DNA of 64,000 bases from Bacteroidia bacterium. GTDB lineage: Bacteria > Bacteroidota > Bacteroidia > M30B66. Of the stretch, positions 38,713-43,850 are shown piece by piece; within the stretch, counting starts at the first letter, position 1, and every line of letters starts with the position of its first letter. The notes under the pieces are model-generated. The model saw only the letters and a list, made by a program, of their open reading frames with translations. It ran no database searches and was not told the DNA's origin. The position numbers were made by a program, and so were the translations under genes. The stretch is from assembly GCA_965279035.1 (NCBI GenBank), contig OZ257142.1, forward strand, positions 3,360,001 through 3,424,000, read 5' to 3'.

Positions 38713-40028
38713 AGAAGGTTTTAATACTGAGTTATTTTTTTCCTCCGTGCAACCTCACTGCTTCTCAACGAAGTTTAGGTTGGGCAAAATACCTCCGTGC
38801 TGAAGGTTGGGATCCTATCGTTATAACGCGCAATTGGGATATTCATATTGGACAACCCGACGATATGCATAAAGATTCGGGTACCGAAATTCATCACAAA
38901 AAACAAGATGGATATGAAGTGTATTACCTTCCTTTTAGAGGGAATCTGCGCGATCGATTGTATTCAAAGTATGGAAACACCCGTTACCGACTTCATCGCA
39001 AAGCATTATCTTTCATCGAACTCAGTGGTCATCATTTTCATACCTCGTTCATCCCTTTTTCGAATCTTTACCATTTTGCTTTAAAATATTGCCATGATCA
39101 TCCCGAAGTGGAAGCCATTGTAGTAACGGGAAATCCATTTGAGATTTTTCGATTTGGTTATAAGCTTCATCAAAAAACTGGCATTCCTTGGATTGCTGAT
39201 TACCGTGACGATTGGACCACAAGTGAAGTAAATGAGAATCGTGGATTTCTTGATTTCTTCCTGAAGGAAATGGAAAAAGGCAGTGAGAAAAAATGGATTG
39301 GAACAACACATTGTATTACATCTATTTCACCATTCTATGCCCAAAAAATTGGGGATTTTGTAGGAAAGCAAGGACATGTTTTGCTGAATGGATTTTTTGA
39401 AGAAGAATTAAACGGATTTCAAAACATTCCATTGGAGGAAAATTTTACCATCATTTATATAGGGATGTTGTATCCTTCTCAGCAGATTGAAATTTTTCTA
39501 GATGCTTTTAAAATGTTGGTGGAAAAGAATCCCGAAAGCCGTGATCGTATTCGATTAAGTTTTCCAGGGATTTTGTTTTTAAAGGATGTTGCCAAACGAG
39601 TTTGTGATTACATGAAAGGCTACGAAGATGTGGTACATTTAAGTGAACGTATTTCGCGTGATAAGGTGCTCGAACTTCAAGCAAAAGCACATCTATTATT
39701 GATGGTTTCACACAAAGGCGCGAAAGGAATTCCTTCAAGTAAAATATATGAATACCTAGGAATTGGCAGACCTGTATTGGTTTGTCCAGGTGACGATGAT
39801 ATTTTGGACGAAACTTTTTCTGCATATAATCTTGGACATATTGCCAATACTTCAGAAGAAGCATATCAGGTTTTACAAAAACTTTTCGATCGCTATCTTC
39901 AAGGACAATACTCTGAACTAAAAGCTGATTCGAATTACACTTCAAACTTTGCGCGATCTCGTCAAGCAAGTGTTTTAGCAAATTTGCTTAATGAAGCATC
40001 AGAAAAGTCCGGGCATTCCGGGGATTAA
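38709..40028 (+). CDS. GT4-like glycosyltransferase
   Basis: YFFPP, WIADYRDDW, LLNGF, SSKIYEYL. Confidence 0.87.
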   Translation: MKKVLILSYFFPPCNLTASQRSLGWAKYLRAEGWDPIVITRNWDIHIGQPDDMHKDSGTEIHHKKQDGYEVYYLPFRGNLRDRLYSKYGNTRYRLHRKALSFIELSGHHFHTSFIPFSNLYHFALKYCHDHPEVEAIVVTGNPFEIFRFGYKLHQKTGIPWIADYRDDWTTSEVNENRGFLDFFLKEMEKGSEKKWIGTTHCITSISPFYAQKIGDFVGKQGHVLLNGFFEEELNGFQNIPLEENFTIIYIGMLYPSQQIEIFLDAFKMLVEKNPESRDRIRLSFPGILFLKDVAKRVCDYMKGYEDVVHLSERISRDKVLELQAKAHLLLMVSHKGAKGIPSSKIYEYLGIGRPVLVCPGDDDILDETFSAYNLGHIANTSEEAYQVLQKLFDRYLQGQYSELKADSNYTSNFARSRQASVLANLLNEASEKSGHSGD

Positions 40029-40298
40029 TCCTCCAGCCATTGAACGCATTTCCGATTCATTAACACGTTCGGCTTGCTCCAATGCTCGGTTAACTGCAAC
40101 TTGAATCAAGTCTTCTAATTGTTCTGAATCTCCTAAGTCGAGTAATTCGGGGGAGATATTCACAGCGGTAACTTTCTTATTTCCGTTCATGTGAATTTTT
40201 ACTTTCCCTTGATCAGCATCACCTATTACTGTAATAGCTTCAAGACGAACTTTAATTTCGTCCATCCGCTTTTTCATTTCCATGAGTTTGTCGAGCAT
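39999..40298 (-). CDS. ybaB: YbaB/EbfC nucleoid-associated protein
   Basis: G.A..GKVKI..NG, LEDLI..AVNRAL, C-terminal IPGMPGLF. Confidence 0.88.
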   Translation of the reverse strand: MLDKLMEMKKRMDEIKVRLEAITVIGDADQGKVKIHMNGNKKVTAVNISPELLDLGDSEQLEDLIQVAVNRALEQAERVNESEMRSMAGGLIPGMPGLF

Positions 40299-40380
40299 TG
40301 TTCAAATTTTACAGCAAAACTAATCAATCAGAAATTGCAATGAGGCGTGTTTTTTCGATGGATATTTGCAAAAAACACAC

Positions 40381-40650
40381 ATGGAAGCAACGATTGATAT
40401 TAGTCTTTACCCTTTGGATGAAAAATATGCAACCATCATCAGCGATTTCATCCTTAAACTTAAGGATAACAAGGATTTACGTGTTGAAGTAAATGGACTA
40501 AGTACCCAACTATTCGGATCATACGATCATCTATTTGCCCTTCTTCAAACCAGTTTAAAGCCAGTATTGATGGAATATCCAGCAGTAGTTGTTTTGAAAA
40601 TTGCTCGTGGAATGCATACACGCGATGCTTTACCGGCAATTTTGAAATAG
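40381..40650 (+). CDS. YkoF/thiamine-binding-like protein
   Basis: IDISLYPL...FI..L...VNGLSTQLFG.YD pattern; ATG 40381 preferred. Confidence 0.7.
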   Translation: MEATIDISLYPLDEKYATIISDFILKLKDNKDLRVEVNGLSTQLFGSYDHLFALLQTSLKPVLMEYPAVVVLKIARGMHTRDALPAILK

Positions 40651-40833
40651 TATACCATAAAATGTCCTTTTGATGAGGTGAAAAATTCGAGCTTATCAAC
40701 CAAAACACTTATGAACAACAAGTGAATAACCTCAGAAAATAATTGAAATAATTGGATTTTAAAGGGCTTACAATCATTCTCTTCGGTTGAAAACCTAGTG
40801 CATATCGCGTTCAAAACTACCACACGATTTTTC

Positions 40834-40894
40834 TTGTTTAGTACCTGACTTTGTGCACCTTTGATACAGCAGATAACAACAACGTTCTTTAACA
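40834..40894 (+). promoter_or_regulatory. Promoter-like motif followed by boxA-like element
   Basis: TTG(40834)-N19-CACCTTTG(40856-40863), 1 mismatch to TAnnTTTG; CGTTCTTTAACA at 40883-40894 resembles boxA TGCTCTTTAACA. Confidence 0.5.
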
Positions 40895-41330
40895 CATAGG
40901 AAATTCAGTTTACTGAAAATCTCAAAAAAACAGCGAATGAAAATTTGCTGCACGATGTAAACCAAGATAAAGATCACCACGTGATTCCATTTTGGGGAAA
41001 AGGGCAACCGATTCTTTCATCTATGTGATTTCGGGAAGAATGTTTCTAAATGAAATGATAGAGCGCCATTCTCAAATTAAGTGTGTTGAAATACATATTT
41101 AGCTATCGTTTGGAAGAGCCCATCATGAATTTTAGATTTCATTGATAATTTGTTCTGATTTGAATGCTTGAAACAGCAATTAAAAAAGACAGAGGAGAAC
41201 GACCACAGCACAAACCAGGCTCTTTGAGAGTCGTGTGTCTAAAGATTAAGTTAAATGCTTTGCTGAATTGTTACGGCAAATCAGCTCGAAAACGGAAATT
41301 CTGGTCAAACAGGATTTCCGTTTTTTTTTT
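40868..41330 (+). ncRNA. Candidate large structured non-coding RNA (~460 nt), family unknown
   Basis: Promoter-like motif, boxA-like element, many hairpins and a + strand terminator, with no credible ORF. Confidence 0.5.
41289..41330 (+). terminator. Strong intrinsic terminator with U-tract on + strand
   Basis: AAAACGGAAATTCTG / CAGGATTTCCGTTTT stem; T10 at 41321-41330. Confidence 0.85.
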
Positions 41331-41373
41331 GCAATTATGTCAATTGAATGGAATGAAGTATTGAAATTCTCTA

Positions 41374-41649
41374 CTAAAATTTCAAATACACATACACAAC
41401 AGCATAAACGAAAGTCATTAGTAATATGCCTTTCCCCGTTTTTTCATAATGCCCTTTCTGCATATATTGTCTAAATGGCAAAAGGTTGACAACCAAAGCC
41501 AAAACAAGCATCGTTGGTTGATCGAATCGAGTAACAACTTTACCTGTGTTCAAGGTAATAGTGACAAATTTTTCTAAAATCAAATATACAATCATAGGTA
41601 TCACAGCTCCTATCAATGCTCCAAATATGAAGTTGTCTTTCTTAAACAT
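41374..41649 (-). CDS. Small 3-TM membrane protein coupled to surE
   Basis: Three hydrophobic segments; start overlaps the surE stop by 8 nt. Confidence 0.75.
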   Translation of the reverse strand: MFKKDNFIFGALIGAVIPMIVYLILEKFVTITLNTGKVVTRFDQPTMLVLALVVNLLPFRQYMQKGHYEKTGKGILLMTFVYAVVYVYLKF

Positions 41650-42412
41650 CTTGTTCCCAACTTTTAAATTTATTTAATGCAGCATGTGCTGTAATATCGA
41701 ATTGGCAAGGAACAACCGAAACATAATTATTTTCTAATGCCCAAATATCTGTATCCGTTCCAGAATCGTAATTCTTAAAAACGCCTGTCAACCAAAAATA
41801 GGGTTTACCTGATGGATCTTTTCGCTCATCAAATTCTTCTTCCCAATTGGCAATGGCTTGTCGACATACTTTTATGCCCTTAATCAATTCCTTGCTCACA
41901 TTGGGAATATTAACGTTCAAACAAATGCGATCGGGCATTTCGTTTTCGAGCGCTTGAGAAATGAGAATACGAGCAACATCTTGAGCGGCAGAAAAATCGG
42001 CATCAATTGAATGGTCGAGCAAAGAGAAACCAATCGAAGGAATTTGTTCCATTGCACCTTCCATCGCAGCCGACATCGTTCCAGAATAAATCACATTGAT
42101 AGAAGCATTTGAACCATGATTTATTCCTGAAACTAATAAATCAGGTTTACGATGAAGAATTTTATTTACTGCTAACTTGATACAATCTACAGGAGTTCCT
42201 GAACAGGCGTATTCAATTGTACCGTCTATTTTGATTGGATTTACACGTATGGTTGCATTGATTGTAATGGCATGTCCCATTGCCGATTGAGGTTTATCGG
42301 GAGCAACAACAACCACATCTCCAAATTCTTTTGCTACTGCAACCAGCGCACGAATACCTGGTGCAGTAATCCCGTCGTCGTTACATACAAGTATTAATTT
42401 CCTCTCGGCCAT
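41642..42412 (-). CDS. surE: 5'/3'-nucleotidase SurE
   Basis: ILVCNDDGITAPGI, SGTPVDC, SGINHG, YSGTMSAAMEG. Confidence 0.97.
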   Translation of the reverse strand: MAERKLILVCNDDGITAPGIRALVAVAKEFGDVVVVAPDKPQSAMGHAITINATIRVNPIKIDGTIEYACSGTPVDCIKLAVNKILHRKPDLLVSGINHGSNASINVIYSGTMSAAMEGAMEQIPSIGFSLLDHSIDADFSAAQDVARILISQALENEMPDRICLNVNIPNVSKELIKGIKVCRQAIANWEEEFDERKDPSGKPYFWLTGVFKNYDSGTDTDIWALENNYVSVVPCQFDITAHAALNKFKSWEQDV

Positions 42413-42598: not shown

Positions 42599-42603
42599 GG
42601 AAG

Positions 42604-42677
42604 TGATCCCGTTGAGATTCGAACTCAAGACCCACAGCTTAGAAGGCTGTTGCTCTATCCAGCTGAGCTACGGAACC
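42604..42677 (-). tRNA. tRNA-Arg(TCT)
   Basis: Reverse complement GGTTCCGTAGCTCAGCTGGATAGAGC-ACAGC-CTTCTAA-GCTGT...GTTCGAATC; TATCTTTG promoter box at 42691-42698. Confidence 0.96.
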
Positions 42678-42828
42678 AATTTCAGGGTGACAAAGATAGA
42701 AAAATCGATCTCTAAGCAGTTAAATCTGAAAAATCATTGCAGTTTTTCGTGATAAAAAAGTGAAATATTCGGGCATTGATTCAATACTATTTTGAAAATC
42801 AGGCACTTTGAAAAAACATTCAAGAAAG

Positions 42829-42858
42829 TTTGGAGGGAAACATTTTTTGGTACATTTG
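42829..42858 (+). promoter_or_regulatory. Bacteroidota sigma-A promoter for tRNA-Ser/tRNA-Pro
   Basis: TTTG (42829-42832) ... TACATTTG (42851-42858). Confidence 0.7.
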
Positions 42859-42871
42859 CAGCCCACGCCAC

Positions 42872-42961
42872 GGTGAGGTGGGTGAGAGGCTGAAACCACC
42901 AGTTTGCTAAACTGACGTACGGGTAACTGTACCGCGGGTTCGAATCCCGCCCTCACCGCCA
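42872..42961 (+). tRNA. tRNA-Ser(GCT)
   Basis: GGTGAGG/CCTCACC acceptor stem, TTGCTAA loop, long variable arm, GTTCGAATC, encoded CCA. Confidence 0.96.
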
Positions 42962-43021
42962 GTAAATTCTGAAACCAACCGGAATTCAGAATGAGTGCAA
43001 AAAAATTACCTTCGGGTAGTT

Positions 43022-43096
43022 CGGGATGTAGCGTAGTCCGGTCATCGCGCCTGGTTTGGGACCAGGAGGTCGCAAGTTCGAATCTTGCCATCCCGA
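43022..43096 (+). tRNA. tRNA-Pro(TGG), integration site
   Basis: CGGGATG/CATCCCG acceptor stem, CCTGG-TTTGGGA-CCAGG anticodon arm. Confidence 0.96.
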
Positions 43097-43101
43097 CGAA
43101 T

Positions 43102-43250: not shown

Positions 43251-43850
43251 TCATGCTGCTTGTTTCAATAGCTTCTTAACTTTCTGAACAGTTCCTAGTG
43301 CCACGTTGCAGCGACTAGCTATATCTCGTAACGGTTTTTTCATTCGAAGATGGATTACAACTTCTTTGTAGTGTTTCAGAACTTCTTCTGGTGATTCCGT
43401 TGTTCCTTTCTCACGTCCTTTATACACTCCACGCTTTTTAGCTTCTGCAATACCTTCTAATTGACGTTCACGTAAGGTCGAACGTTCCATTTCGGCTATG
43501 TTAGCCAGCACACTGACAATTAGCTTGAACGTTGGATTCTCTTTTCCGTTAACCAGTGATTCTAATCCTAGGTTATCCACTCTTAAGATTACACCCGCAA
43601 CTGTAAAGTTCTCGATTGTCTGCAATACATCGAGTGTGTTACGCCCAAGTCTTGAAATGTCACTAACAGATACGTAGTTGATTTCGCCACGTTTAATCGC
43701 TTCTAATAGCTCATTTGCCTTTGGTCGGTCATGGAATAGAATAGCACCAGAAACCTTATCCATAAAAATCATTTCATCTGGATGCTGTTTAGCCATCTGG
43801 CGGGCTTCATTCTGAGAAAAACAACTTGTCCGAATATATCTTGCTTTCAT
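43251..43850 (-). CDS. Small serine recombinase (resolvase/invertase)
   Basis: YIRTS catalytic Ser, DKVSG, ISRLGRN, AEMER...RERQLEGI, YKGR, C-terminal HTH. Confidence 0.93.
   Translation of the reverse strand: MKARYIRTSCFSQNEARQMAKQHPDEMIFMDKVSGAILFHDRPKANELLEAIKRGEINYVSVSDISRLGRNTLDVLQTIENFTVAGVILRVDNLGLESLVNGKENPTFKLIVSVLANIAEMERSTLRERQLEGIAEAKKRGVYKGREKGTTESPEEVLKHYKEVVIHLRMKKPLRDIASRCNVALGTVQKVKKLLKQAA

Follow-up and report, generated by a model that had tools for sequence, protein, structure and literature searches.

A probable stand-alone gene for a highly structured non-coding RNA with an rRNA-type boxA leader in a small order of uncultured Bacteroidia

Introduction

Does a gap between two convergent genes of a Bacteroidia genome hold the gene for a large non-coding RNA (ncRNA), and if so, what kind of RNA would this be? 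To our knowledge, few classes of bacterial ncRNA reach a length of several hundred nucleotides, and every one of them has led to new biology. A sequence-only reading of the window (the whole 64,000-nt stretch of DNA analyzed here, to which all coordinates refer) had proposed an independently transcribed large ncRNA of unknown family at this site. The proposal is supported by a unit conserved in 12 of 12 copies, by covariation within the fold, by the lack of an Rfam match and by cover with contigs from RNA libraries. We put at roughly 80% the probability that positions 40868-41330 of the + strand are a stand-alone gene for an apparently abundant, highly structured ncRNA of an undescribed family, headed by an rRNA-type boxA leader. 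That the 5' end resembles an rRNA-type boxA had not been recognized in the sequence-only reading. Orphan large ncRNAs are themselves already known, and what is new here is the coupling of one of them to a putative boxA leader.

The Locus and Its Predicted Transcript

The gap, described earlier as about 720 bp between convergent genes, spans 723 bp (40651-41373), lies between a 94-aa ORF on the + strand and a 91-aa ORF on the - strand, and holds the ncRNA gene on the + strand (Table 1). The nearest + strand gene, which is YkoF-like, ends 218 nt upstream of the predicted RNA start. No tRNA or tmRNA was found within the gap by ARAGORN, and a repeat search of the gap found no direct repeats in it or flanking it.

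Housekeeping promoters of Bacteroidota consist of a -33 TTG and a -7 TAnnTTTG element at a spacing of about 19 nt. The site at 40834-40863 carries both elements at about this spacing and is thus a predicted promoter of this type; the earlier claim of TTG-N19-CACCTTTG holds as it was made. The layout is kept in all 12 copies of the RNA as TTG, exactly 19 nt, CA[CT]CTTT[GA], 4 nt and AGCA, with the -7 box beginning with CA instead of the TA of the consensus in every copy. A sigma-70 promoter scan, which does not cover Bacteroidota promoters, reported nothing at 40834-40863.

Between promoter and terminator lies a folded RNA body of about 420 nt. The strong + strand terminator claimed earlier was found at 41289-41330 with the sequence GAAAACGGAAATTCTG-GTCAAA-CAGGATTTCCGTTTTT and a T run up to 41330, and it shows the features of an intrinsic terminator, namely a G+C-containing hairpin, a subsequent T run and compensatory change in relatives. 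It is the sole terminator-like site that a terminator scan reports in 40000-42000, but shuffled sequences give 1.5±1.3 such sites, and therefore the scan by itself proves nothing. All complete copies end with a hairpin and a T run, and the terminator stem has compensatory changes in both subgroups described below (helix 19 in group 1, helix 17 in group 2).

Table 1. Features at the RNA locus, in window coordinates.
Feature	Position	Strand	Remarks
YkoF-family ORF, 94 aa	40366-40650	+	family match E 1.7e-5
-33 element TTG	40834-40836	+	predicted Bacteroidota-type promoter
-7 element CACCTTTG	40856-40863	+	19 nt after TTG
Predicted transcript, ~463 nt	40868-41330	+	start inferred from promoter
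Position of boxB-like hairpin before boxA	40869-40880	+	degenerate in window: GCAG..CAAC, 2/4 pairs
Putative boxA, C-GTTCTTTAACA	40883-40894	+	CGTTCTTTAA invariant in 12/12 copies
5' domain, ~460-nt subgroup only	40893-41028	+	hairpins 40904-40917, 40931-40950, 40962-40995, 40996-41015
Small conserved hairpin TTC-GGGAA-GAA (group 2: TTCC-GAAA-GGAG)	41030-41040	+	12/12 copies, 100% paired
Central long irregular stem	41057-41124	+	helices 41057-64/41118-24 and 41066-69/41110-13; cap hairpin 41080-86/41093-99
Helix TTTGTT/GACAGA enclosing hairpin 41159-68/41175-84	41149-41193	+	covariation in A3
GGAGAACG	41194-41201	+	complements CGTTCTTT of boxA region, 8/8 pairs in window
GCAC/GTGT helix with hairpin GGCTC/GAGTC	41208-41236	+	76-85% paired, weak support
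3' hairpin, loop GTTACGG	41259-41288	+	helix 18 (A3): 7 pairs changed on both sides
Intrinsic terminator	41289-41330	+	15-bp stem 41289-41303/41310-41324, 6-nt loop, T run to 41330
91-aa ORF	41374-41649	-	no Pfam family; overlaps start of surE
surE	41642-42412		adjoins/overlaps 91-aa ORF

Relatives of the RNA

Relatives were reached through SurE, for which 80 loci were fetched, the closest (76-83% identity) being those of five uncultured Bacteroidia (L001-L005, from genomes G001-G005). When the gap was compared with all 80 loci by BLAST and nhmmer, only L001 resembled it. In L001 the 91-aa ORF and ybaB flank the unit, without a YkoF gene, and pairwise comparison with the window shows the promoter and the first 30 nt strongly kept, the body diverged and the terminator kept by compensatory changes. 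A BLAST search of G001-G005 with the window RNA matched the 5' block in G001 and G005 only, in the latter at another genomic context, and otherwise gave three short spurious matches. The pattern AGCANANNANNNCANCGTTCTTTAAC, with at most one mismatch, found eight copies in 7 of the 24 species genomes of G001's order, a small order of Bacteroidia, and none when reversed as a control. A metagenome scan gave three loci, one identical to the G006 copy and two new, of which one holds two tandem copies and the other a single copy. Beyond the window, this amounts to 11 further copies in seven genomes of the order and on two new metagenome contigs, or 12 distinct copies in total. The carriers are uncultured freshwater and soil Bacteroidia.

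The copies fall into two subgroups by length, and each genome carries one subgroup type only. Group 1 (454-472 nt, hereafter ~460 nt) comprises the window, G006, G007, G009 and G001, the G007 copy being cut by a contig end, while group 2 (403-408 nt, ~405 nt) comprises G016, G005 with two copies, G019 and the three metagenome copies. The window RNA is 87% identical to those of G006 and G007, 69% to that of G009, 53% to that of G001 and 43-49% to those of group 2; between the subgroups the RNA bodies are 43-53% identical. Group 1 copies adjoin the same 91-aa ORF and surE (syntenic in the window, G001, G006 and G009), and group 2 copies have an ORF resembling a short-chain dehydrogenase upstream and a convergent gene downstream, these neighbors being named from their translations alone.

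In all 12 copies, promoter, body and terminator are kept together as one unit, in at least three genomic contexts. The unit moves and duplicates as a whole and is untied to any neighboring gene, since the contexts differ and the group 1 syntenic site holds no RNA unit in G002, G003, G004 or G005 (the gap there is 150 bp in G003). Tandem ~405-nt copies, each with its own promoter and terminator, are seen 1130 bp apart and 87% identical in G005 (L120), and 760 bp apart and 81% identical on a metagenome contig (L152).

Conserved Fold

The many helices listed in the sequence-only reading raise the question of how far the RNA folds better than chance. Over 40868-41330 the fold energy reaches z = -4.32 on the + strand, with 0 of 100 shuffles as good, against z = -2.32 on the - strand, and with the terminator left out (40868-41287) the + strand value is still z = -3.21.

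Conservation was evaluated with RNAalifold on separate alignments of the two subgroups. For the five sequences of group 1 (alignment A3) the consensus fold has 114 pairs, 90.1% of them paired across the sequences, and 42 pairs changed on both sides, compared with 17.5±2.8 in column shuffles (0 of 500 as many) and 9-13 when the partners were slid by 1-3 columns. For the seven sequences of group 2 (alignment A2) the corresponding values are 135 pairs, 96.0% paired and 23 pairs changed on both sides, compared with 10.4±2.2 for shuffled columns (none of 500 as many) and 3-7 for slid partners. The structures were predicted from the same alignments, so that the slid controls are somewhat flattering, and the sequences are few and related. 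The excess of covariation is large, is spread over most helices and supports the fold. The existence of a structured RNA is decisively backed because 11 homologous copies elsewhere show this covariation.

The support differs from part to part of the RNA. In A3, all ten pairs of helix 15 and three of the six pairs of helix 14 changed on both sides, as did 12 pairs of the central stem (helices 10-13). The cap hairpin of that stem carries the conserved loop GTTGAAATAC, a putative T-loop (UGNRA), within a region whose 10-mer GTTGA[AG]A[TC]AC is present in 12 of 12 copies, and the loop motif [GA]NTA[AC]GG of the 3' hairpin is present in 11 of 12. A possible helix CACATAG/CTATGTG, which would close the 5' domain, is 84% paired in the five sequences with no compensatory changes.

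The helices named in the sequence-only reading all lie where they had been placed, with standard pairs only (93 pairs, nested), and as a fold they survive in part. Mapped onto A3, these pairs are 80.7% paired, compared with 90.1% for the consensus fold, and include 18 both-side changes against 9.5±2.2 expected. Four helices are well kept (41080-86/41093-99 and TGCT/AGCA at 100%, the terminator at 91%, TCGGGA/TTCTGA at 87%), whereas three show poor pairing over all or part of their length, namely AGACA/TGTCT (60%), TTTGCTG/CGGCAAA (57%) and ATCATGAA/TTCATTGAT (67.5% overall, with its distal half lost).

It is important to consider whether the two subgroups are one family at all. They could instead be different RNAs that share only an expression cassette made up of the promoter, the hairpin-boxA leader and the terminator, as the low identity of the bodies (43-49% between the window and group 2) and 5' domains unlike in size and helices would allow. 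Attempts at a joint view point the same way: MAFFT mis-registered the subgroups, so that no joint alignment was obtained, and the covariance model R1, built from the central domain of group 2, could not align group 1, does not find the window and scores G001 at only 13.8 bits. Against this, several elements inside the bodies are common to both subgroups and collinear. After the 5' block come the TTC(C)-GNRA-like hairpin and the stem with the GTTGA[AG]A[TC]AC loop, both in 12 of 12 copies, followed by a GGAG element, the 3' hairpin and the terminator. In addition, G001 is intermediate, its CGTTTCCGAAAG, TAGTACGATT and CATCACGGTTAG resembling group 2, and the occurrence of one subgroup type per genome also speaks for a single family. 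On balance we regard two unrelated RNAs in a shared cassette as improbable and treat the copies as one family, in which homology of the RNA bodies between the subgroups would rest on these short collinear motifs.

Distribution

Within the searches made, the family does not extend beyond a single small order of uncultured Bacteroidia. A search of 400 sampled Bacteroidia genomes, allowing up to two mismatches, gave 30 matches in 29 genomes against 29, by our count, in the control; none of those outside the order has a promoter context, and they resemble random hits or coding sequence. For the bare motif GTTCTTTAAC no genome-wide enrichment is seen in five genomes (63 matches, compared with 197 for the reversed control), and among 30 of its loci examined the promoter context occurs at RNA copies only. 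Searching the order for TTTGN{12,28}GTTCTTTAAC gave no new members above noise, and model R1 found only the three known group 2 genomes among the 24.

The fact that only 7 of 24 genomes carry the RNA and that the syntenic site is empty in four close relatives means that this is not a core housekeeping RNA, or else that incomplete assemblies and divergence hide copies. Patchy presence, together with the tandem duplicates, makes an accessory role more likely than an essential one.

The same patchiness, the different sites used by the two subgroups and the tandem duplicates would also be expected of an RNA that, like GOLLD or ROOL, belongs to an element of mobile or phage origin instead of being a chromosomal cellular RNA. 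Moreover, three tRNA genes and a resolvase gene stand 1.3-2.5 kb away in the window. Group 1 is, however, syntenic beside the 91-aa ORF in four genomes, the copies have no flanking repeats, and searches of 50,697 phage and 72,556 plasmid records gave no match. One match on a viral contig (L154) was rejected as a member, being without promoter context. An origin in a mobile element therefore seems very improbable to us, and we keep to a chromosomal RNA gene.

The three tRNA genes (Arg-tct, Ser-gct and Pro-tgg) occupy 42603-43097 and are followed by the serine recombinase (resolvase) gene at 43251-43850; this region may be the edge of an integrated element.

Known Families and Coding Potential

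A search of the whole window against Rfam 15 at gathering scores returned three tRNAs only. With permissive filters, the region 40600-41500 gave ten matches, all at E >= 0.15 and far below gathering scores, and eight member loci gave none at E <= 0.01. The earlier statement that neither a tmRNA nor an RNase P RNA is present also agrees with our searches, which found neither in the gap and both elsewhere in member genomes. For RNase P RNA, RF00010 has no match in the window, and the genuine gene (266-276 bits) was found elsewhere in four of five member genomes. For tmRNA, ARAGORN and Rfam report nothing in the gap and a gene over cut-off elsewhere in two of five member genomes (G006 and G019). 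A search with the 6S RNA model RF01685 (6S-Flavo) matched none of five genomes, and likewise none of 14 control genomes. Full-text literature searches, whose coverage leaves out most subscription journals, found no description of this RNA.

No ORF of at least 20 aa is common to all copies. Six of the seven group 2 copies have an ORF of 32-45 aa (MKFA...) at RNA positions ~129-260; its substitutions follow hairpins, it is stopped after seven codons in G016, and it is absent from group 1.

Such short ORFs, and a + strand gene end only 218 nt before the predicted start, could suggest that the RNA encodes a small protein, or that it is the tail of the YkoF-like gene's mRNA, as a long 3' UTR or by read-through. 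All 12 copies nevertheless keep the promoter, the RNA is present in G001 without the YkoF gene, group 2 has other neighbors altogether, and the substitutions track base pairs, not codons, with no conserved ORF. Both versions of this idea are scarcely credible beside a stand-alone ncRNA gene.

A Putative boxA at the 5' End

The invariant 5' block CGTTCTTTAAC appears to be the lineage's own rRNA-operon-type boxA, because it matches the consensus, because the same motif stands in the order's rRNA leaders, and because the layout of a hairpin followed by boxA is shared. The passages of Baniulyte et al. (2017; PMC5725501) used here give a boxA consensus, GYTCTTTAANA, derived for gamma-proteobacteria. 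Positions 40884-40894 of the window (GTTCTTTAACA) fit this gamma-proteobacterial consensus at 11 of 11 positions, and the other 11 copies fit it at 10 of 11 (PMC5725501). The motif begins 21 nt past the -7 box in every copy, about 15 nt into the predicted transcript. A hairpin stands 3 nt upstream of it in 11 of the 12 copies, the exception being the window, where the stem is broken; the hairpin sequence is GCAG-AUGA-CUGC in G001, G006 and G007, GCAA-AUGA-UUGC in G009 (a compensatory change) and GCA..UGC in group 2. No boxC-like element was identified in the RNA family.

For comparison we used the six 16S rRNA genes that could be recovered from the 24 genomes of the order (L155-L160). In all six leaders GTTCTTT[GA]A (GTTCTTTGAA) is found at -118 to -131 before the 16S gene, and in five of six a small hairpin stands directly before this boxA at about -125, with arms (GACAG/CTGTC, AAGTC/GACTT, CGAAC/GTTCG, GACC/GGTT) that differ and yet stay complementary, that is, covary. 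All six also have a near-match boxA (e.g., TTTGCAGCCC..GTTCTTTAAA) after at least one upstream promoter-like -7 box, and the exact GTTCTTT[AG]A after the distal -7 box. Among five 16S-23S spacers, seen within 400 nt, GTTCTTTGAC occurs in two and GTTCTTTACA in two, with an overlap in one spacer. Four RNase P RNA genes of the order are without a boxA-like motif.

Within the 450 nt upstream of 16S, the leaders have two or three promoter-like sites, each consisting of an A-rich tract, TTTGG, about 19 nt and TnnTTTTG, and the boxA-like GTTCTTT[AG]A lies within ~10 nt after at least one upstream site. A further variant, GAGTTCTTTACAT, which is also seen in two 16S-23S spacers, lies in the tmRNA gene of G006 (L198) between a promoter-like box and GGGGCCG, some 15-25 nt upstream of the mature 5' end, and is absent from the tmRNA gene of G019.

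Conservation of the block could also be structural, and not for Nus factors, because the boxA region has invariant internal complements in the RNA itself (group 1, GGAGAACG; group 2, CGGTTAA), and neither putative pairing varies. Of the eight possible GGAGAACG/CGTTCTTT pairs seven are invariant, and group 2 has only GGAG at the place of GGAGAACG. To the idea that the locus is what is left of a degraded rRNA operon leader and has survived by chance, which the promoter type and boxA common to rRNA leaders might suggest, we give practically no credence, as outside boxA there is no resemblance to leaders and covariation in two diverged subgroups signifies selection on the fold.

Cover in RNA Libraries

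An index search with window positions 40300-41700 found 22 runs, DNA runs included, from 14 studies, among them 17 RNA-library runs holding 4-18% of the words. Contigs were aligned from 4 of the 17 RNA runs, belonging to four studies (freshwater, wetland in two cases, and peat metagenome), and yielded seven metatranscriptome contig pieces, all within 40877-41304. Close strains and relatives of the source are present in those libraries, since three pieces differ from the window by 1-2 positions and the others by 3-19. In one contig a sequencing adapter directly precedes 40877, 9 nt past the predicted start, which fits many cDNA fragments ending near the 5' end of the RNA. The flanks 40300-40876 and 41305-41700 are uncovered in the aligned runs, and an uncovered part proves nothing about transcript ends. 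We count this cover as consistent with expression and not as proof of it, because contigs cannot give strand, ends or level and DNA may occur in RNA libraries.

Discussion

In E. coli, the Nus complex counteracts termination by Rho, leaves intrinsic termination in place and helps RNA to fold. A stand-alone gene with a boxA leader could then work as follows. RNA polymerase would start about 5 nt after CACCTTTG, and the nascent 5' end, with its small hairpin and boxA as in the lineage's rRNA leaders, would load NusB/S10 and other Nus factors. The polymerase so modified would resist Rho along an untranslated transcript of 0.4-0.47 kb and help the RNA to fold, transcription would end at the intrinsic terminator, and the RNA would then act in trans. 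Antitermination by Nus factors with chaperoned folding is what we infer from the 5' block for this untranslated RNA, and it seems a reasonable fit to an untranslated, highly folded RNA ending at an intrinsic terminator, because the complex spares intrinsic termination.

As to function, our best guess, and a tentative one, is that the RNA serves as a protein-binding scaffold or a sequestering RNA made in step with ribosome synthesis. Rather unlikely is a new class of large cellular RNA that is made by the rRNA transcription machinery (the Nus-factor antitermination complex), hence co-regulated with ribosome synthesis, and that works in association with ribosomes or translation or else as an RNP scaffold that assembles itself. 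Should that second possibility hold, dependence on boxA would here be shown for a structured ncRNA for the first time.

The antitermination module of rRNA leaders (boxB hairpin and boxA, with NusB/S10/NusA/NusG/SuhB) is a close known counterpart. The motif GTTCTTT[AG]A, its promoter-proximal position and the hairpin before it in 11 of 12 copies are alike in both, whereas here the putative module stands at the head of an orphan RNA of 0.4-0.47 kb with an intrinsic terminator, and not of an rRNA operon. Antitermination by Nus factors was long regarded as a device of rRNA (and phage), and CRISPR arrays also carry boxA. Outside rRNA, boxA is further described in the suhB 5' UTR and other mRNAs, by a survey that, as its authors state, left non-coding RNAs aside (Baniulyte et al., 2017; PMC5725501). 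These cases resemble the one proposed here in that Nus factors act on non-rRNA transcripts and that long untranslated RNAs need protection from Rho; they differ in being mRNA leaders or repeat arrays in proteobacteria, as opposed to a structured ncRNA in Bacteroidia. The boxA leader suggests that Nus-factor antitermination also serves a large orphan ncRNA in Bacteroidia; if so, the known scope of Rho evasion and of chaperoned folding would widen. The general importance of this RNA is limited by the narrow and patchy distribution of the family.

Among large orphan bacterial ncRNAs, OLE, GOLLD, ROOL, HEARO and raiA have Rfam models. The RNA described here is like them in its length of several hundred nucleotides, its many covarying helices and its narrow lineage, and unlike them in having no match in Rfam 15, a strong predicted promoter of its own and a boxA, and in that most copies are not beside tRNAs or phage genes. 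The IMES RNAs, which are structured RNAs of marine metatranscriptomes, are similar as structured RNAs of uncultured bacteria recovered in environmental RNA libraries; our RNA differs in lacking an Rfam match, in the freshwater, wetland and peat origin of its libraries and in its Bacteroidia host. The RNA polymerase-binding 6S RNA and Ms1 are, like it, stand-alone, apparently abundant and non-coding, but they form a rod with a central bubble, whereas the consensus folds found here are multi-branched.

Two minor observations concern the neighboring genes. The YkoF-family ORF sits between ybaB and the RNA gene in the window and is missing at the matching site in G001 and G003, and therefore its presence at 40366-40650 is a recent gain or loss. 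The 91-aa ORF is hydrophobic and is kept beside surE in all five of L001-L005, with 50-71% identity.
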